In this document: positions 2,769 to 58,278 of the stretch, in pieces
Position numbering within the stretch: position 1 is the first letter of the stretch
How the letters are laid out: each line of letters begins with the position of its first letter
Source of the DNA: Candidatus Saccharimonadota bacterium
GTDB taxonomy: Bacteria; Patescibacteriota; Saccharimonadia; Saccharimonadales; Saccharimonadaceae
DNA: 64,000 nt
Direction of reading: 5' to 3'
Assembly: GCA_017509895.1 (NCBI GenBank)
Contig: JAFWOH010000001.1
Span: 1,454-65,453 of the forward strand
The notes under the pieces: model-generated
The model's input: only the letters and a program-made list of their open reading frames with translations
Databases searched by the model: none
What the model was told of the DNA's origin: nothing
Translations under genes and position numbers: made by a program

Positions 2769-4085
2769 TTAGTCAAAATAGATAAAGGAGAAGCCGGCAC
2801 TTTGGTATTCATAAGGTGCCCAATAATCTTCGCCATAATCACCGTACATGCCACTCGGGGCGGTGCCGAGATTATTATATTCGGAAATATAGATACCGCC
2901 ACTAGCATCAACGGACTCTACCCATTGGACATGGCCAACTCCACCGACTGGCCAGACGGCGACAGAATGTGCCACCGGAGTACTCGATACATGATAGCCA
3001 TAAGCGGCGGCGGACCAAGCCCATGAGATAGCATTACCCCACGCGACATTCCAAGGTGCATAAGCCTCTTTACCGCCAGAAATCCGGCCATGCCAATATT
3101 CATAAGCCTTATAACCAGCATAAGAGACACATTCACATATAAAGCCACCATAATAATTAGTGTAGCCGAATTGACCAAAGTAAGCACCCCAACCGAGATT
3201 ATTACCGTCATTCTGGGGGCAGTAATCACGATAAGCATAGGTATCATTAGCGGCGTTAGTATAAACGCCAACGGTAGGACCACTATAGAGGGCCTCTTCG
3301 ATAGTAGCGTATTCACCTCTTTCGACAGCGGCGCGAGCCTCTTCTTGGCGACGACGCTCGGCCTCGGCGGCGATGCGCTGGCGCTCGGCCTCCATGGCTT
3401 TTGCAACCTCTTCGGCCTGAATACGGCGGGCCTCCTCGGCCTCTGCGGCAAAGGCAGAAGCATCACTAGCGTATTTAGCCTGAAGATTAGCCTGTTCCTG
3501 ACGCATGGTGGCGATTTCGTTTCGTTCCCTTTCCTGACCCTGTTTTAAAACCTCTTGATCAGATTTTTGCTGCTCTAATTCCTTTTTGGTCTCTTCGATT
3601 TTTTCGGCGCTAGCGGCAATCTGGTCTTTAACGGCCTCTGCTCGAGCCTGTTTTTCGGTCAAGTCAGTAATATTTTTACTGCCGGCAATCTGAAGAATGA
3701 GCTCGGTGTCATTGTTATGGTTCATGTCATTAAGCACTTCGGCGAGAGCGGTCTTTTGTTCTGTCAAAGTTTTAATTTTTTCATCAATTTCTTTAGTTAA
3801 AGTGTTAATCTGATTAATGGAAGCCTGAATGACGGCCTCTTTCTGAGAGATTTCTCCGCTCAAGCGGTTTACCTCTTGTTCGTAAGTATAGGCAGTATTT
3901 GCGGCCTTTTCGGCGGCCTCATTTTTCTCGGCCTCATCTTTTTTAGCCTGTTTGCAGGCATCAGAAGTACAGTAATCGGTAGCACCAGCGGAGTTTGAAG
4001 TTAAGACAATACGGATAGCAGAGCCACTCATGAGGCAGAGGCTCGCAGTTATTAAAAGCAATGTACGCCGTATTTTAATCCACAT
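2769..4085 (-). CDS. Secreted coiled-coil + CHAP peptidoglycan hydrolase (PcsB/CwlO-like)
   Basis: Signal peptide, long coiled coil, CHAP residues ECVSYA, WGNA..W and GHVQWVE; directly downstream of ftsEX. Confidence 0.85.
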   Translation of the reverse strand: MWIKIRRTLLLITASLCLMSGSAIRIVLTSNSAGATDYCTSDACKQAKKDEAEKNEAAEKAANTAYTYEQEVNRLSGEISQKEAVIQASINQINTLTKEIDEKIKTLTEQKTALAEVLNDMNHNNDTELILQIAGSKNITDLTEKQARAEAVKDQIAASAEKIEETKKELEQQKSDQEVLKQGQERERNEIATMRQEQANLQAKYASDASAFAAEAEEARRIQAEEVAKAMEAERQRIAAEAERRRQEEARAAVERGEYATIEEALYSGPTVGVYTNAANDTYAYRDYCPQNDGNNLGWGAYFGQFGYTNYYGGFICECVSYAGYKAYEYWHGRISGGKEAYAPWNVAWGNAISWAWSAAAYGYHVSSTPVAHSVAVWPVGGVGHVQWVESVDASGGIYISEYNNLGTAPSGMYGDYGEDYWAPYEYQSAGFSFIYFD

Positions 4086-36004: not shown

Positions 36005-36490
36005 TTAGACGTTTCTAAGCATCTTTATTTCCAAAACTTTTGAATTTGGGATTCCTGGCACTGGCCTAACTTCGTCGGTCTCATAAAAGCCATGTCGTCT
36101 GTAAAATTCCTTTGCTCTTTCGTTCTCACATAGAACCCACAGCTCGCGACAGTCGAATGTATTTTTAACGAATTTGATTAGCTCTCCGCCAATACCTTTT
36201 CCTTCGAAAAACGGATCGACATATAATTCTTTAATCTCAGAGCCTTTAACGCGTATCATCCCCTGAACAAATTTATCACTATAGACGAAAATTGTATTAA
36301 GTAATTCTGGTTTTCTAACATATTCCTTCGCTAACGGATAAACTTGCAGCTCAACAAACGACCCAATATCGTTGTTAAAAATTTGACGATAATTTTTCCT
36401 CTTTGAAAAAACCAATATCTCAGCGATTCGCGATACATCGTCAATGGAAGCTTTCCTTATACTTTTGGAAACCTCAATGTCCTTGCTCAC
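36005..36490 (-). CDS. GNAT family N-acetyltransferase in an AT-rich islet
   Basis: LYVDPFFEGKGIGGEL acetyl-CoA motif, N.RAKEFYRRHGF; GTG start with SD GAGGAGG. Confidence 0.88.
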   Translation of the reverse strand: MSKDIEVSKSIRKASIDDVSRIAEILVFSKRKNYRQIFNNDIGSFVELQVYPLAKEYVRKPELLNTIFVYSDKFVQGMIRVKGSEIKELYVDPFFEGKGIGGELIKFVKNTFDCRELWVLCENERAKEFYRRHGFYETDEVRPVPGIPNSKVLEIKMLRNV

Positions 36491-36784
36491 GGTCACCACC
36501 TCCTCTATAAATGAGCACATTTTCATATTATACCATAAAATGGGGGGGGGTTGGCATAGGTGCTTCTTCTTTTGTGTTATCCTCATCGTAGCGCTGTTTT
36601 GGTAAACGCATTCAGTTTATTCTGGATATCCTCTTTATAGATTGTTAATGCCTGCCCAATTCGCCCCCACCACCGTAGAAGCTGAAGCAAGCAAAAAGCT
36701 TGCTTTTTTGCTTGATGTTCGCCCCTTGGGATGTGTGAGCGGAGCGAAGGCGCCGCCCAGTGGAAGACGCGCGAAGCGTGGCTA

Positions 36785-51475: not shown

Positions 51476-54418
51476 ATGCCGAAATATCAGACATATGGTC
51501 AGTATGACGCGAGAAAAGATGAATTTCCGGAAAGTGCGGAGAAGGTTTTGCGTGCTGGAGAAGAGGCGGCGAGTGGAGATTTTGAAAAAGATGCAGTTTC
51601 TAGTGAGAAACTAGAGAAAGATGAGCAACAAGGTTTTTATAATAGTACCGCGAGAGAGGCGAATAAGCGAGAGGGCTTGTATCAAGGTTCTGGGCTAGTA
51701 ACGGCTCTAAATGGGGCGCGCGGAAGGAGTAAGGGCGGGAGCTTTATGAAAAGGCGGGCGCCGCTGATTGCAATTATCGCCTTGATTGGCGGGATGGCGG
51801 TCGGGATTGGTTTTTCACAGGTCTTAATGCCCTTTCATGTGATTGAATCTTTGACAGAGGTGACAGACGGAGCATTTACGGCGAGAGCAGCACGGATGCC
51901 GAGCCTTGCAAAGTGGATTTTTAATATGGAGACACAAGATGTATTTACAGAAAGCACACCAAGAATTAAGAGCTTGTTGACTGGTGAGCATTATCGTTTT
52001 AGGAGCAATATTGAATCGAATAAGGTAAAAGCTAGATTGGCAGACGAAGGTATAGATGTCGACACAAGTAGCGGAAAAACAGTTTTAAACTATCATCAAG
52101 CGGATGGGTCGGTTCGTACGGTGACGGCGGATGACTATGCGGAACTTTGGCGGAGTGATGCGGACTTTCGGAATAAGATGAATCGGGGAGGCAGGAGTTT
52201 CCTCGGACGGATTGCGGCCCATATTGATTTAACTTTGGCAAATTTTTTGAGTAGTCATAATCTGACGAAGAATTTATTTAAGGGTTGGATAAATAAAGTT
52301 TATGAGGCGGAGGGGCAGACAGCAAGGCTTCATAGTGTGATCGAGGAGAGGAAATCTAGTACACTTGGAGATGTCGATGCTGGTACTGGTAAATCTAATA
52401 TTGATGAAGATGATAAAATAGGAAGTATTCAACAAATTGGGGATGAAGAGGGGCCAAAAAAGATAAATCCAAAAACCGATACTGATGCAGATCTCAAAGG
52501 TAAATATACCGATATGATAGCGAATGTCGCTAGTATTACTACGAGTGCGGTTTGTGGGGCGGCGGCGGTGGCCTCGGCGGTGACAGCGGCAAAATTAGTA
52601 ATAGCCTATTCTAATGCGCGCGGAACTTTTTCGGCGCAGGCAGAAGGAGTAGATAAGGTGAAGGCTGGGATGGGTAATACATCGCCAATTAATGCTATCG
52701 CTGACGAGATGATGGCGAAAGACGAAAATGGAAAGACAATGTTGCAGTCTGAGCAAATGAAATGGGCGATTTCTGGCGGGGCTTATACGCCGAATAAGAA
52801 TGCGGAGGATGTAGTGAGTAATAGTCAGGATGCGATGCTTCGAGGCACCGGAGGGATATTTGATGGGCTTTCTGGTTTTTGGAATAATCTTGGAACAATT
52901 GGGTCAAGTACAAAGTGGATTATTGGTTGTGCGGCGGCAAATGTAGCGACGGCAACGATTTCAATAATAGCGAATATTGCAACTGCTGGTATGTTTTCGT
53001 TTGGGAAATTTGCACTTACTGCGGTGGCGGGGATAGGTTTATCCGTAGGAGTAAGCAAGTTAGCTTCAATGTTGGTAGAAAATGCAAAATCTGATTTTTG
53101 TCTTGATAAAACTGGGGTAGCAAGAGGCGCCTGTGTTTATCTGGGGGCTTCAAATTATAATGGTCTGAATTTTCAAAATGGCGGGGGGACATTGGCAACG
53201 CGCGAAAAAGCGGAGGCTTTCTATGATTCATATAAGATAGCTTTGGCGGATGAGGCGGAGCTGATTCGGAGCGAGAAAAGTCCCTTTGATGCTTCGTCTT
53301 CACACACATTCTTAGGCTCAATTATTTCAAAATTCTCAGTCTTGGCAGTAGATATGCCAGACACAGCAAATATGCTGAGCAATCTCGCCAATGTGACGAT
53401 GTCTTCATTCAACAGTTTATTACCTTCAGCATCGGCGCTTGAAAAAACTAGTTTCTTAGATAACCAATTACGCAATGATTGCGAGAATTTAAATTTCGGC
53501 AGTTTTCAGGCGCTAGGAGATACAAATTGTGAGGCTTGGTATATTACGGACCAAAGCATGAATGATTCTAATCCGGAGGAGACTTTTAATTACTTAATGA
53601 ATTATCATCTAGCACATATCGGAGTCGAATCGATGTTCGAGATGAATGCGGATGGAAGTCTAAAAACAGACGAGAAAACTGGCGCAGAAATAATAAATCC
53701 GAAATCAGATTTAGCGAAATATATTTCTTATTGCGCTTATCGTAATTCCCCGTTTGGCCATGTTGACCAAAATATTATGGATGCCGAAACTTCGTTAATA
53801 AAGACAGGAAACGAGACGGCGAATAGTACAATAAATCAAATATTAGGCGTGATTCCTATTGTTGGCGATTTCATTCAGGCTGTTCAGGGGGTGAGCCAGA
53901 TTGCAACTTTAGGATGGAGTACGGGAGCGAATTGTGTGGCTAGAGGAACGGCAGTTGATACGCAAATTGACGGTATGACTGTGGATGATGTTTCTCAGGG
54001 TCCGCAGACGGCAGGCGCAGTAAGCTTAACTTCTTGGAATGAATTTATGAAATATGCACAAAGTTATGTAGCAGATGATAGGTATATGGAAACGGTAGAC
54101 AAGGATTATGTTTCACCGGTGCAAGAATATATGAAGGGCTATGGAGGGATGACATCGGATGACGAGTTGTCATTCGTGGAATATTTGGCGAAGTATTCGG
54201 GATATACGGTGGAAAATATGCAGATTGCCTTAAATGAAATTGAATATTGGACTTATATTGGGCAATATGACCCGGAGGGTAAGGGGCCGATGAAGTTTGC
54301 TACTGAGGCCGAGCCGACTTATGATTTTACCTCGCCGGAAGTGGTTCCGTCGGAGGTTTTGGCGATTTTGCCGCGGCGGGTGGTTTATCTCACGCGTGAG
54401 CAGTGGACGACGGCATAA
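51476..54418 (+). CDS. 980-aa hypothetical membrane protein with Cys-containing extracellular region
   Basis: Long uninterrupted ORF; TM near residue 100; Ala/Gly-rich hydrophobic hairpins in the middle. Confidence 0.75.
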   Translation: MPKYQTYGQYDARKDEFPESAEKVLRAGEEAASGDFEKDAVSSEKLEKDEQQGFYNSTAREANKREGLYQGSGLVTALNGARGRSKGGSFMKRRAPLIAIIALIGGMAVGIGFSQVLMPFHVIESLTEVTDGAFTARAARMPSLAKWIFNMETQDVFTESTPRIKSLLTGEHYRFRSNIESNKVKARLADEGIDVDTSSGKTVLNYHQADGSVRTVTADDYAELWRSDADFRNKMNRGGRSFLGRIAAHIDLTLANFLSSHNLTKNLFKGWINKVYEAEGQTARLHSVIEERKSSTLGDVDAGTGKSNIDEDDKIGSIQQIGDEEGPKKINPKTDTDADLKGKYTDMIANVASITTSAVCGAAAVASAVTAAKLVIAYSNARGTFSAQAEGVDKVKAGMGNTSPINAIADEMMAKDENGKTMLQSEQMKWAISGGAYTPNKNAEDVVSNSQDAMLRGTGGIFDGLSGFWNNLGTIGSSTKWIIGCAAANVATATISIIANIATAGMFSFGKFALTAVAGIGLSVGVSKLASMLVENAKSDFCLDKTGVARGACVYLGASNYNGLNFQNGGGTLATREKAEAFYDSYKIALADEAELIRSEKSPFDASSSHTFLGSIISKFSVLAVDMPDTANMLSNLANVTMSSFNSLLPSASALEKTSFLDNQLRNDCENLNFGSFQALGDTNCEAWYITDQSMNDSNPEETFNYLMNYHLAHIGVESMFEMNADGSLKTDEKTGAEIINPKSDLAKYISYCAYRNSPFGHVDQNIMDAETSLIKTGNETANSTINQILGVIPIVGDFIQAVQGVSQIATLGWSTGANCVARGTAVDTQIDGMTVDDVSQGPQTAGAVSLTSWNEFMKYAQSYVADDRYMETVDKDYVSPVQEYMKGYGGMTSDDELSFVEYLAKYSGYTVENMQIALNEIEYWTYIGQYDPEGKGPMKFATEAEPTYDFTSPEVVPSEVLAILPRRVVYLTREQWTTA

Positions 54419-54443
54419 AAAAGTGATATAATTGATACTAGAT

Positions 54444-54518
54444 TGAGCCGTCGCCAAGTGGTAAGGCACTGGGTTTTGGTCCCAGCATTCGCAGGTTCGA
54501 ATCCTGCCGGCTCAGCCA
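54444..54518 (+). tRNA. tRNA-Gln(TTG)
   Basis: TGAGCCG/CGGCTCA acceptor stem, CTGGG-TT-TTG-GT-CCCAG anticodon arm, GGTTCGAATCC, encoded CCA. Confidence 0.96.
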
Positions 54519-54580
54519 AAACGAAAATCGAGAGCTTGCTCTCGGATTTTTGTTTTGCGCGTGCCGGCTTTAGGATCCAC

Positions 54581-54600
54581 ATCCTGCCGGCTCAGCCAAA
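54581..54600 (+). repeat. Direct repeat of the tRNA-Gln 3' end (att-like scar)
   Basis: ATCCTGCCGGCTCAGCCAAA identical to 54501-54520. Confidence 0.85.
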
Positions 54601-54687
54601 TGCAATATTATGAATCGGTTTTGGCCGATTTTTTTGATGAAAAATCTTTGTATATCCTAAACGACTTTGTGCATTTTTCGACATAGA

Positions 54688-55243
54688 AAAAGCCGCTAGT
54701 GTACTAGCGGCTGGGAACCCTTTCGGGCAGTGAAAACAATATTTTATCTTTTTCCTATTTTTTTTCCAGATTGAGCAGTACTACTCTGCAAAGCTCTTTT
54801 GCAATCTGGATGATTGTATAGACAAGTATAAAACATCTTCGCATTTTCTTCTGATGATATGATCATAGTCATACGTTCTTCCAAAAATGTTTTCTCACTT
54901 AAAGTACTACTACCGACAAAGAATATGGCTAAAGCCACTAAAGATTCCTCTCATTTTGCCAAGCATTCCCGCTTAGACGACTTCTAATATTTCCCGCTAT
55001 GACGGGAGCAATAAGAAGTTGCACTCGTCTAACGAGCTACGGTTCAGCCTTAAGACTCGTTTTCTTCTCGACTACGGATAGATTTCAAGTTCCTATTCAG
55101 CTAAGCTGTATGTCCAACTGATAGCACCGCATCGAGTTTTAACAATCTGTGCATGATTGCCAGAAAACTTGTCTTACAAACAAACGTTTCAGAATCATTC
55201 TTTTAAGTTACGCGACTCTTCGTCTCCCATAACTCGGAGTATG
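54688..55243 (-). ncRNA. Candidate ~550-nt structured transcript (may include a 64-aa ORF at 54744-54938)
   Basis: TTGACA-N17-TATAAT at 55277-55249; many hairpins; terminator AGCCGCTAGT/ACTAGCGGCT + TTTT. Confidence 0.45.
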
Positions 55244-55388
55244 TTTATATTATAGCATACATTGTAAAAAATGTCAATATATTTTATGCTTTTCTGCTGA
55301 AATTATCAAATTGCATTCTTTGTACTCTGTTAATGTCAGTTTAATTTTGCTCAGCCATTTGACTTTACGCCTGAATATGGCGTATTTT

Positions 55389-55913
55389 TTACTCGATAGA
55401 AAGTATTTTGCCGTTTTTTAGGTGGAGGATGCGTTGATTGCGGGAGCCGCGGAATTTCAGAGTTAAATCACGCTCTGCGAGGACGAAGCGGCCGTCGATG
55501 AGGGCGTCGAGCTCGTTTAGGAAATCTAGGGTAGCCTGATTTTTCTTAGCCTGTTTTTCATCATCAGTCTTGGCTTTGCCATAATCGACAATTTCTTCGT
55601 AGGTAAAGCCGGAAAAGCTCCAGACATCCCAGCCGAGTTCTTTTTTGGCAAATCTTGCAAGCTCAAGGCAGGCCTCTGGCTGGACAAAAGGCTCGCCGCC
55701 GCAGAAGGTGAGGCCGGTCTGGCCCTTTAACTTCCGCAGCTCGTCCTTTACTTCTTCGACATCGATGAGAAATCCGCCGTTAAAATCCCAAGTTTCTGGA
55801 TTCTGACAGCCCTCGCAATGATTCGGGCAACCCTGCGTCCAAATGACGGCGCGGAGGCCCGGGCCATTGACGATGCTGTCACGCTCGATAGGACCTGATA
55901 GGCGGATTTTCAT
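55389..55913 (-). CDS. nrdG: Anaerobic ribonucleotide reductase activating protein
   Basis: GPGLRAVIWTQGCPNHCEGC radical-SAM motif, GGEP, DGRF...GSRNQR. Confidence 0.95.
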   Translation of the reverse strand: MKIRLSGPIERDSIVNGPGLRAVIWTQGCPNHCEGCQNPETWDFNGGFLIDVEEVKDELRKLKGQTGLTFCGGEPFVQPEACLELARFAKKELGWDVWSFSGFTYEEIVDYGKAKTDDEKQAKKNQATLDFLNELDALIDGRFVLAERDLTLKFRGSRNQRILHLKNGKILSIE

Positions 55914-55914
55914 A

Positions 55915-58278
55915 TTATTCCTTTCCTAACGCTTTCTTAGCGGTTTTCTTGGCCTTCTCGCGGGCGGACTTTTCGGAGACGGAATAGACGCCGTCTTTAT
56001 GGCAGGTCTCGCAGGCGACGGAGTGCTTGACGCGGGCGGCCTCCTCGGCCTTCTTGCCGTCATTCCAGCGCTCTAGGCTACCTACGAGATAGCCGGTGAT
56101 GCGACGGAGGCGCTCAAAGAGAACATCATCCTCGATGCGGCCGCAAGACGGGCAGCGATTCCCTTTGATGATACCAGAAAAGCCACAGACCGGATCGCGA
56201 TCGACAGGGTGATTGACCGAGCCATAGCCAATACCGGCATCTTTCATGTGGCGGATGACCGCTTCAAAAGCCTCGATATTATCGGAAGGATCACCGTCTA
56301 ATTCAATATAGCTAATATGGCCGGCATTACAGAGGGCGTGGAAGGGTGCCTCTTTGTCGATTTTATCAAAAGCGGAAATATTATAATAAACTGGGACATG
56401 GAAGGAATTGGTATAGAAATCGCGGTCGGTGACGCCTTCGATTTTACCATATTCTTTACGATCCATCTTAGTAAAGCGACCGGCAAGACCCTCGGCAGGA
56501 GTGGCGAGGAGCGAGAAATTGAGATGATATTTCTTGGTATATTCATCACATCTCTCGCGCATATGGGTGATGATGTCGAGACCGAGCTCCTCGGCCTCGT
56601 CTGACTCGCCATGATGCTGGCCAATCATCGCCTTTAAGGTCTCGGCGAGGCCGATAAAGCCGATAGAGAGAGTGCCATGCTTAATTACATCACCTAGCTT
56701 ATCATTAGGCTTTAATTTTTCAGAACCGAACCAGTTCCCTTGTCCCATGAGGAAGGGGAAGTTTCTAACGTGCTGATTGGCTTGAAAGTCATAGCGCTCA
56801 AGAAGCTCATCTTTAACTAAGTCCATCATCTTATCAAGGTCTTTATAAAAACCGGACCAGTCTGCTTCCTTTCTTTCGCCGAGGCAGATGCCATGCTTGA
56901 TGCCGAGGCGGACGAGATTAATCGTGGTGAAGGAGCAGTTGCCGCGACCGGTCACGATGCCATCTGACTCTTTAAAGCAAGAGCCAAAGACGCGGGTGCG
57001 GCAGCCCATGGTGGCAATCTCGGTATTGTAATCGCCGGGCTTATAATATTGGAGGTTAAACGGCGCATCGATGAAGGTGAAATTCGGGAAGAGCCTTTTT
57101 GCCGAGACTTCCATACTGCGCTTAAATAAGTCATAATTCGGGTCTTCAGGATTATAGTTAACTCCCTCTTTGACCTTGAAAATGGAAATCGGGAAAATCG
57201 GGGTCTCGCCATGACCGAGGCCGTTCATGGTAGCCTCGAGGAGATACTTCGAGACGAGGCGGCCAGAGGGGCTGGTGTCCGTACCGAAGTTAATACTCGT
57301 GAATGGCACCTGAGCGCCGGCACGGGAATGCATGGTGTTAAGATTATGGATAAAGCCCTCCATGGCTTGAAAAGTCTGTTTCTCGGTATCCTCGGTACTA
57401 GCCTTAATAACAGAGGCGGGGACTTTAAGCTTCTTTAATTTTTCATCTTCGCCAAATTTAATATCATCGGGGATTTCAATCTTAAGATGCTTATCGGCGA
57501 ATTCATTGTATTTTTCGAGATTAGATTTTAAGGCCTTTTTGAAAGTCTTGTCGACGCCGGGAGCCATGGCATAGTCGAAATTCGGAATGGACTGTCCACC
57601 ATGTTGCTCGTTTTGATTGGCTTGAAGGATGATGGCGGCGAGAGCGGCATAGGAACCAATCGAATTGGGGGTGCGGAGATGACCATGACCGGTATTAAAA
57701 CCACCGTTTGCAAAAAGTTTTAGAGGGTCTGTCTGACAACAAGTGAGGGTGCCGGTGGCATAGAAATCGAGATCATGAATATGGATGTCGCCATTATCAT
57801 GAGCATAGGCATGCTCCGGCTTTAATAATACAATTTTAGCAAAGGCCTTTGAACCCTCAGCGCCGAATTGGAGCATTTTGCCCATGGCGGAATTACCATC
57901 AACATTAGCGTTAGATCGCTTAATATCGGAATCTTCGGAAGCATCAGCGATAGAAATGGTCTTATAAGCCTCCATGAGATTTGACTTGGCATCGCGGACC
58001 TTGTTTCTTTCCTGACGATAAGTAATGTATTCCTTAGCGGTACGCTTAAAGCTGGACTCCATCAAGACGCGCTCGACGATGTCCTGAATCTGTTCTACCT
58101 TCGGAGTGCGCTCTGTGATTTCCTCTTCAGCGACTTTTAGTACCTTTTCGGTCAGCTGTTTGGCGCGGTCATATTTAAATTCTTCGGTCGCTGCTCCGGC
58201 CGCAGCGATAGCGTCGGTGATTTTTTCGGGATTGAAACTGACGATTTTTCCATCTCGTTTCTGAATTTTCTTGAACAT
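55915..58278 (-). CDS. nrdD: Anaerobic (class III) ribonucleoside-triphosphate reductase with ATP cone
   Basis: N-terminal ATP cone, HIHDLD, TCCQ, MGCRT, TPAEG, RRITGYL glycyl-radical motif. Confidence 0.97.
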   Translation of the reverse strand: MFKKIQKRDGKIVSFNPEKITDAIAAAGAATEEFKYDRAKQLTEKVLKVAEEEITERTPKVEQIQDIVERVLMESSFKRTAKEYITYRQERNKVRDAKSNLMEAYKTISIADASEDSDIKRSNANVDGNSAMGKMLQFGAEGSKAFAKIVLLKPEHAYAHDNGDIHIHDLDFYATGTLTCCQTDPLKLFANGGFNTGHGHLRTPNSIGSYAALAAIILQANQNEQHGGQSIPNFDYAMAPGVDKTFKKALKSNLEKYNEFADKHLKIEIPDDIKFGEDEKLKKLKVPASVIKASTEDTEKQTFQAMEGFIHNLNTMHSRAGAQVPFTSINFGTDTSPSGRLVSKYLLEATMNGLGHGETPIFPISIFKVKEGVNYNPEDPNYDLFKRSMEVSAKRLFPNFTFIDAPFNLQYYKPGDYNTEIATMGCRTRVFGSCFKESDGIVTGRGNCSFTTINLVRLGIKHGICLGERKEADWSGFYKDLDKMMDLVKDELLERYDFQANQHVRNFPFLMGQGNWFGSEKLKPNDKLGDVIKHGTLSIGFIGLAETLKAMIGQHHGESDEAEELGLDIITHMRERCDEYTKKYHLNFSLLATPAEGLAGRFTKMDRKEYGKIEGVTDRDFYTNSFHVPVYYNISAFDKIDKEAPFHALCNAGHISYIELDGDPSDNIEAFEAVIRHMKDAGIGYGSVNHPVDRDPVCGFSGIIKGNRCPSCGRIEDDVLFERLRRITGYLVGSLERWNDGKKAEEAARVKHSVACETCHKDGVYSVSEKSAREKAKKTAKKALGKE

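Follow-up and report, generated by a model that had tools for sequence, protein, structure and literature searches.

A region of about 550 nucleotides (nt) beside a tRNA-Gln gene of a Candidatus Saccharimonadota bacterium raises two questions: what the region encodes, and why it adjoins the gene of a tRNA. The stretch of DNA that we analysed, hereafter the window, comprises 64,000 nt (assembly GCA_017509895.1, contig JAFWOH010000001.1, positions 1,454 to 65,453 of the forward strand). A preliminary description, made from its letters alone, proposed that the region specifies either a large structured non-coding RNA or the tightly repressed mRNA of a small protein. The first of these proposals is well supported, by a conserved structure with compensating changes and by a promoter and terminator that are conserved in homologues. 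We consider it very probable that the region is a stand-alone gene for a structured non-coding RNA of ~555 nt, carried as the sole cargo of a cassette that lacks an integrase and sits at tRNA 3' ends. Positions below are those of the window unless another contig or locus is named; the features are collected in Table 1.

The consensus promoter that had been noticed on the minus strand (TTGACA-N17-TATAAT, 55277-55249) scores 12 out of 12, and in homologues it reads TTGAC(A/T/G)-17-TG(T/C)GCTATAAT, with TAAAAT in one copy. The intrinsic terminator, which had been placed at ~54688-54712, proved to be a hairpin of nine pairs (54712-54691) followed by a T-run, and all five of the pairs counted in this hairpin, H20, have compensatory changes among copies. 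Both signals are conserved in homologues, even in copies that are 75% identical. Folding of the predicted 558-nt transcript (~55243-54686) gave -162.5 kcal/mol, as compared with -133.2±6.1 kcal/mol for 100 shuffled sequences (z -4.78), none of which reached the stability of the native fold. We suggest that the RNA gene is transcribed from its own consensus promoter, constitutively and at a high level, and that its own terminator would end the transcript. A conserved AAAGCATAAAA box at 55282-55293 (minus strand), which lies 4-8 nt upstream of the -35 element and is retained in most copies of the RNA gene, might serve as an UP element or as a site for a regulator.

Our search for homologues covered all 369 species genomes of the genus Candidatus Nanosyncoccus, and the RNA unit is present in ten of them, that of the window included. 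Full-length copies were found in nine other genomes of the genus, at 86-93% identity, together with one further copy at 75% and one that is cut by a contig end. When an exact 19-mer from the core was searched for in 185,579 species genomes, the same genomes were found, plus seven metagenome contigs with a copy, two of which are ~76% identical; a second exact pattern gave no further carrier among the 185,579. Carriers are Saccharibacteria of gut and rumen, with relatives from sheep ileum and similar sources. No copy of the unit was matched in phage and plasmid collections, four pattern scans of IMG/VR returned only three chance 19-mer matches with no wider similarity, and the bacterium's own genome has no paralogue of the RNA apart from promoter-like matches. 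Matches from a first search of 60 relatives covered the promoter only and were discarded as other consensus promoters rather than homologues. Since the RNA occurs in 10 of 369 species, it is accessory, unlike an essential RNA present as one copy per genome.

To look for a conserved structure, we aligned 17 copies with MAFFT from sequence alone, using no structural information. The RNAalifold consensus of this alignment has 125 pairs in 20 helices, long-range ones among them, with 97.6% of cells paired. A homologue search followed by a covariation analysis had been proposed as a check, and it found homologues with 29 pairs changed on both sides, against 7.9±2.1 in 500 shuffles (none of which reached 29) and 3-9 in controls in which the structure was slid by one to three columns. 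Because RNAalifold itself uses covariation, the count was redone on the minimum free energy (MFE) structure of the window copy, in which covariation plays no part: of its 187 pairs (91.1% paired), 46 are compensated, compared with 16.4±2.8 in shuffles and 11-18 in slid structures, all of these counts coming from an alignment that is shallow in independent lineages. Among the helices with the clearest switches are the long-range helix H3 and the terminator hairpin H20; H7 has UA, CG and UG in seven, five and three sequences, H16 has three pairs that switch among AU, UA and GC forms (each in 5-6 sequences), and H17 passes from AU to GU to GC. Hairpins listed in the preliminary description can be placed in this structure. 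TCCCG/CGGGA is H12, which is invariant in the 17 copies, and TCCAGATT/AATCTGGA is H17, which covaries and encloses GCAAA/TTTGC (H18). The CTCGT-TAG-ACGAG hairpin is present, but covariation favours instead the alternative pairing that had been offered for it, TTAGACGA with TCGTCTAA (H10); indeed, changes at A285 and U330 in the copy L092 keep this long-range helix and break the local CTCGT/ACGAG hairpin.

Conservation along the RNA is patterned, with 91-97% identity at RNA positions 181-300 and 71-79% at positions 91-180. In the model that we propose, long-range helices of a 5' domain would close a near-invariant core of ~120 nt together with a replaceable variable arm, and a 3' domain would be organised by a three-way junction and a long-range helix that covaries. 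L092 and L093 lack part of the variable arm, and in L064 that part has been replaced. The H7 hairpin (55140-55162, loop AUGCACA) is conserved; MAFFT misplaces it in L093, which by eye keeps H7 with a CC/GG compensation. At the 5' end, hairpin H1 and a long-range alternative to it are in competition, each of them conserved. Just before the terminator lies a GNRA-capped hairpin (GCCC-GAAA-GGGU, ~54715-54730), in place of which three copies have insertions of 30-50 nt (L106, 3555-3615; L095, 2440-2490; L092, 1165-1195); to judge from the aligned copies, this is a second site in the RNA at which expansion is tolerated.

The RNA is a ~555-nt family absent from Rfam. The Rfam/Infernal scan that had been suggested for the region matched tRNA and no other RNA family: this was so for the whole window at gathering scores (cmscan with 4227 families of Rfam 15), for positions 54400-55450 at E≤10 and for six homologous loci at E≤1. 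Membership of ROOL, GOLLD, OLE, raiA or HEARO was rejected for lack of a covariance-model match in Rfam, so that the parallel drawn earlier with ROOL and GOLLD, which are often found near tRNA genes, is apt as an analogy and fails as an assignment. The impression that the candidate bears no signature of transfer-messenger RNA (tmRNA) or RNase P RNA was correct, since both sit on another contig of the same genome, C25 (RNase P RNA, 226.7 bits; tmRNA, 73.4 bits). The Rfam model of 6S RNA had no match in the whole genome, which is 92% complete.

We weighed the possibility that the transcript is instead an mRNA for a protein of 38-64 amino acids (aa), with a long folded leader that represses it, as in type I toxin mRNAs. 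The window does have an open reading frame (ORF) at 54744-54938, with a GTG start and a Shine-Dalgarno (SD)-like GAGAGGA upstream, as had been pointed out, and an inner ATG ORF (38 aa; 42 aa in the window through one extra A) is open in 12 close copies. Nonetheless, the longer frame is not conserved, being intact in just four copies and broken by 1-nt indels in the others, and the supposed SD, GAGAGGAATC, is paired, as the 3' strand of long-range helix H3. In L092 both ATGs are ACG, with a compensating A-to-G change that preserves hairpin H15, and the downstream part of the ORF region is in a different frame in L064, L092 and L093. Variable columns fall at codon positions 1, 2 and 3 in the ratio 6/12/9 in the close set and 19/18/21 in all copies, with no third-position excess, and two non-synonymous replacements, ATG-to-TCG (M to S) and TAT-to-TGT (Y to C), have matching changes in the 3' strand of H16. 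The peptide lacks hydrophobic character, and Pfam and PHROG families gave no match to any stop-to-stop frame of the region. Frame breaks, loss of the start and the lack of codon periodicity together argue for a non-coding RNA rather than a small-protein mRNA, and we regard the latter, the second of the two original proposals, as highly improbable.

Nor does the region appear to be a dead protein gene, which had been named as an outcome that would count against a structured RNA. A tblastn comparison of the region with all ORFs downstream of nrdG in 29 relatives yielded noise only, and a pseudogene of a syntenic gene was rejected for want of any such trace. A broader version of this idea is that the region is a decayed gene or neutral spacer DNA, similar between genomes merely through recent horizontal spread. 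The 86-93% identity of most copies would fit, as would the observation that species differ less in the cassette as a whole than in the genes that flank it, from which it follows that recent transfer contributes to the conservation. Against this, a highly conserved core alternates with a far less conserved arm, compensatory changes lie far above controls, promoter and terminator are kept in copies of 75% identity, and no frame holds a protein family. We therefore consider decay or neutrality extremely unlikely, and return to the non-coding RNA gene to ask how it came to adjoin a tRNA.

Homology between the window and other copies starts just upstream of the promoter and stops just past the terminator; among the other genomes it extends from ~63 nt upstream of the promoter to ~180 nt past the terminator. 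The conserved ends of the cassette measure ~60 nt on the left and ~170 nt on the right. Of 13 copies for which the downstream flank was fetched, eight lie against a tRNA 3' end, either directly or with a mini-insert in between, and in L058 the RNA cassette is followed by a second cassette and then by tRNA-Met. All seven copies with homologous ends abut a tRNA, and both the tRNA and the flanking core genes vary. The tRNAs are Ala-GGC, Val-CAC (five copies, including L059, which is cut by the contig), Val-UAC (two), Leu-CAA and, in the window, Gln-UUG; the flanking genes include those for tryptophanyl- or tyrosyl-tRNA synthetase, a release factor, sortase, deformylase, DUF362, L31, RidA, a pseudouridine synthase and a lipase, as well as nrdG. 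In all cassette copies the RNA unit is convergent with the tRNA. Between L060 and L061 the cassette is 93.9% identical and the adjacent release-factor gene 71.5%, which points to recent exchange between species. The RNA is the sole cargo of a cassette of ~0.75-0.86 kb that abuts tRNA 3' ends; the 750-nt cassette of the window has no ORF of more than 64 aa, and so encodes no integrase of its own. We propose that the tRNA-Gln gene is a neighbour because the RNA is cargo of a tRNA-3'-end cassette, and thus that it marks an integration footprint and is not a functional partner.

The boundaries of the cassette are repeats of the tRNA end. Other copies start with TGGTGG plus 2-5 nt, the reverse complement of a tRNA end in ...CCACCA, and end at the TGGTGG of the real tRNA. 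In the window, the left repeat TGGCTGAGC marks the outer boundary of the cassette, adjoining the nrdG terminator, and the same 9-mer recurs at 54590-54598 and at the real end of tRNA-Gln (54510-54518). A longer inner repeat (54581-54600) bounds the cassette on the tRNA side, and between it and the tRNA lies a 60-nt mini-insert, which is probably a later, separate insertion; L106 has a like layout, with an analogous insert between cassette and tRNA-Val (3800-3905). Gene-less inserts of ~60-90 nt occur directly behind several tRNA genes of this genome, each ending in a duplicate of the last 12-24 nt of the tRNA. They were seen at 54501-54600 of the window and on contigs C26 (tRNA-Gly UCC and tRNA-His), C22 (tRNA-Met, 37938) and C31 (tRNA-Val GAC), and some have a common segment, ...ATCGAGCG(C)GAAGCG(C)GAGATCC....

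The same ends enclose other cargos. The left-end motif CAGGNNTTAACANNNTATARRGR has 109 matches in 79 of the 369 genomes of the genus, that is, in about one fifth of Nanosyncoccus species, and the matches are often in tandem, 0.6-2.5 kb apart; a reversed control pattern had none. In 30 fetched loci the motif is always preceded by TGGTGG(G/T)G..., and wherever a tRNA is near enough to be seen the motif is directed towards its 3' end (Val, Phe, Met, Ile, Leu, Ala). The right ends (~170 nt) are homologous regardless of cargo and fall into two subtypes, each with two TTAACAG-type repeats. Protein cargos in the sample include NUDIX hydrolases (four), GNAT acetyltransferases (two), an SDR protein, an HD-domain protein, an S-adenosylmethionine (SAM) methyltransferase, a class V aminotransferase and several of unassigned function; none is a recombinase. 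The RNA cassette of the window has type-A ends, the right one cut to ~85 nt, and the other RNA cassettes have type-B ends, which indicates that cargo modules and ends have recombined. A second cassette of the family lies in the window itself, at tRNA-Val(CAC), from 35785 to ~36672 in minus-strand layout, and consists of a left end TGGTGGGGGCGAATTGGGCAGGCATTAACA..., a promoter, a GNAT ORF (36005-36586, minus strand), a terminator and a type-A right end of ~170 nt. At that same release-factor/tRNA-Val site L060 and L061 carry the RNA cassette, and other species have RNA or NUDIX cassettes behind tRNA-Val(CAC). Single-gene cassettes of this kind appear to be a main channel for gene flux in these genomes of 0.7 Mb.

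A location within a recombinase-less element that targets tRNA ends might suggest that the RNA belongs to the machinery of mobility, as an excision RNA or as a guide, or bridge-type, RNA for a recombinase; RNA-guided recombinases and transposases do exist. However, the cassettes with the same ends that we sampled hold protein genes and no such RNA, and by eye the variable arm does not follow the identity of the target tRNA, with no complementarity to the tRNA ends in copies at Val, Ala, Leu and Gln. Three divergent copies are not in any recognisable cassette, and no match of IS110, TnpB or IscB type was seen in a search that was not exhaustive. On these grounds a role in mobility seems very unlikely. 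A role in transcription can also be imagined, in which a strong convergent promoter and a terminator insulate or modulate the tRNA gene or the cassette boundary. The consensus promoter and the constant convergence with the tRNA would agree with such a role; however, it would not need 555 nt of covarying structure, the protein-cargo cassettes in our sample have the same orientation, and there are divergent copies with no tRNA nearby. We see next to no likelihood in it, and continue with the RNA as cargo.

If the RNA is cargo, the cassette would have to be mobilised in trans by a site-specific recombinase. The genome of the window encodes a single tyrosine recombinase, which is of Xer type (314 aa) and has a prepilin peptidase gene after it, and a single large serine recombinase (534 aa). 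The former was rejected as a helper, its gene being of core type, and an IMEX-like scheme using Xer and dif sites was dropped when a generic dif consensus gave no convincing site. The gene for the large serine recombinase (contig C15, 2196-11920; L111, L144) ends inside the 3' end of tRNA-Leu(GAG), and all 11 orthologues that were fetched (L145-L155) likewise end in a tRNA 3' end (Leu-GAG, Arg-CCG/UCG/GCG or Ala-GGC). In this genome it belongs to an element of ~9.5 kb that has a 14-nt repeat of the tRNA-Leu end at its borders, near which there are further copies of that end, of 9-11 nt, three of them 63 nt apart (11779, 11842 and 11905). The large serine recombinase may be considered a tentative candidate for the helper. 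An autonomous element with the same ends was found neither in the genus nor in IMG/VR or elsewhere, and a literature search on tRNA cassettes in Saccharibacteria returned nothing relevant.

Several observations weigh against the reading of the RNA as cassette cargo with a function of its own. We could link none of the recombinases to the cassettes; the large serine recombinase tracks them weakly, occurring in 37 of the 79 motif-bearing genomes and in 108 of the 290 others, by a hand count in which related genomes are not independent. In the fetched flanks of the divergent copies L064, L092 and L095 there are neither tRNAs nor recognisable cassette ends, from which we conclude that the RNA gene can exist outside a cassette and, again, that the tRNA is not its functional partner. 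A covariance model of the 123-nt core found no copy in 150 genomes that represent ~120 other genera of the order; although real, the family is narrow and confined to one genus. Most copies are so similar (86-93%) that much of the covariation comes from few lineages and the three divergent copies. Lastly, the data indicate no specific biochemical function. We nonetheless propose that the product acts in trans, as RNA, and would do so through its invariant core. By analogy with ROOL and GOLLD, it could be a self-sufficient RNA machine, with the core as a binding or assembly surface that would give the carrier a selectable accessory trait, an idea that we put forward only tentatively. Equally tentative, and on balance doubtful, is that it represents an RNA-only accessory gene, a ~555-nt ribozyme or a self-assembling particle like those of ROOL and GOLLD, exchanged between species of ultra-small epibiotic Saccharibacteria as the single cargo of a cassette and by itself conferring a trait open to selection, for example resistance to phage or an influence on the host bacterium.

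The comparison with ROOL and GOLLD is instructive in both directions. ROOL RNAs average 581 nt, and GOLLD and ROOL often occur in prophages and close to tRNAs (Weinberg et al., 2017, PMC5737381); both form RNA-only assemblies, as seen by cryo-electron microscopy (PMC12286853). The RNA described here (558 nt) shares with them its size class, a multi-domain fold with long-range helices, the lack of an associated protein gene, an origin in rumen or gut sources, and a location beside tRNA genes and on mobile DNA. It differs in that it matches no Rfam model, in its host, a single genus of Saccharibacteria within the candidate phyla radiation (CPR), and in its vehicle, an integrase-less cassette of less than 1 kb rather than a prophage.

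The cassettes, for their part, resemble tycheposons (10.1101/2020.12.28.424599) and cis-mobilisable elements (CIMEs), which also insert at tRNA 3' ends, are bounded by partial tRNA repeats, stack in tandem and bring accessory cargo into streamlined genomes, with the cargo at one tRNA varying by strain; the RNA cassette shares with CIMEs that it is flanked by att sites and has no recombination genes. They differ in that each unit spans just 0.6-2.5 kb, lacks an integrase and has a single cargo gene that comes with a promoter and a terminator, in their short repeats (6-9 nt, sometimes up to 20 nt), in their use of many tRNAs ending in CCACCA, and in that no parent element with a recombinase was found. 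Integron cassettes are likewise recombinase-less single-gene units, found in tandem at a fixed site with conserved ends and varied cargo. Membership of that class was rejected, because there is no IntI or attI (the sole tyrosine recombinase in the genome is of Xer type) and because these are not promoterless ORF-attC units: the cargo has its own promoter, in the RNA cassettes as well as the GNAT cassette of the window, the site is a tRNA 3' end, and the ends are of ~60 and ~170 nt with TTAACAG-type repeats in place of attC hairpins.

Bacterial non-coding RNAs known to exceed 500 nt are few, and what they do is for the most part open. Our literature search found no report of a large structured RNA in Saccharibacteria or Patescibacteria, nor of one packaged as the sole cargo of a minimal mobile unit. 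The present RNA is a compact and tractable case, with a defined promoter and terminator, an invariant core of ~120 nt, natural deletions of the variable arm, and natural carriers and non-carriers among sister species. For one family, it provides a concrete explanation of large RNAs beside tRNA genes; should the proposal of an RNA-only accessory gene be true, this would suggest that large ornate RNAs near tRNAs ride on tRNA-targeting mobile DNA. The locus also brings to light a family of cassettes at tRNA 3' ends, each with a single gene and no integrase.

Table 1. Features of the RNA gene, its cassette and the adjoining tRNA gene (window positions).
Feature	Positions	Strand	Basis or remark
Structured non-coding RNA, ~558 nt (predicted)	54686-55243	-	Start placed ~7 nt past the -10 element; end is the terminator T-run
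Sigma-70-type promoter, TTGACA + 17-nt spacer + extended -10 TGCTATAAT	55249-55277	-	12/12 consensus positions; TG precedes the -10
Intrinsic terminator, hairpin H20 then T-run	54691-54712	-	9 pairs
Near-invariant core, helices H9-H13 including stacked H10/H11/H12, and loops	54943-55064	-	Column identity 91-97%
Variable domain, closed by H5/H6	55065-55139	-	Alignment of copies; follows the conserved H7 hairpin
3' domain, hairpin H14/H15 and long-range H16 closing the H17-H19 junction	54738-54887	-	Holds the non-conserved ORF
64-aa GTG ORF; inner 42-aa ATG ORF starts at 54872	54744-54938	-	Judged non-functional as coding sequence
Left direct repeat TGGCTGAGC	55349-55357	-	Reverse complement of the last 9 nt of tRNA-Gln, including CCA
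Left-end motif, degenerate type-A form CTGACATTAACAGAGTACAAAGA; family consensus CAGGNNTTAACANNNTATARRGR	55317-55339	-	Left-end alignment
Right cassette end, truncated type-A, with hairpin AATCGGCCAAAACCGATT	54599-54685	-	Compared with the ~170-nt right ends of 13 cassettes
Inner direct repeat, last 18 nt of tRNA-Gln + 2 nt	54581-54600	+	20/20 match to the tRNA end
Gene-less mini-insert, 60 nt, including the tRNA terminator hairpin	54521-54580	+	Separates the real tRNA-Gln end from the partial copy
tRNA-Gln(UUG), integration target	54444-54518	+	Convergent with the RNA gene

The window is part of contig C3; the genome measures 0.72 Mb and consists of 41 contigs. On the minus strand, nrdD (55915-58278) and nrdG (55389-55913) precede the RNA gene, and on the far side of the tRNA a gene for a 980-aa membrane protein ends at 54418. 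In the closest relative, L026 (G020:C96, 1260-1627), whose NrdG is 90% identical, the flanks are the same, with nrdG and a homologue of the 980-aa protein. Compared with window positions 54419-55400, this relative lacks the cassette and has tRNA-Gln and its promoter in the opposite orientation, indicating that the whole tRNA unit was inverted in one of the two lineages.

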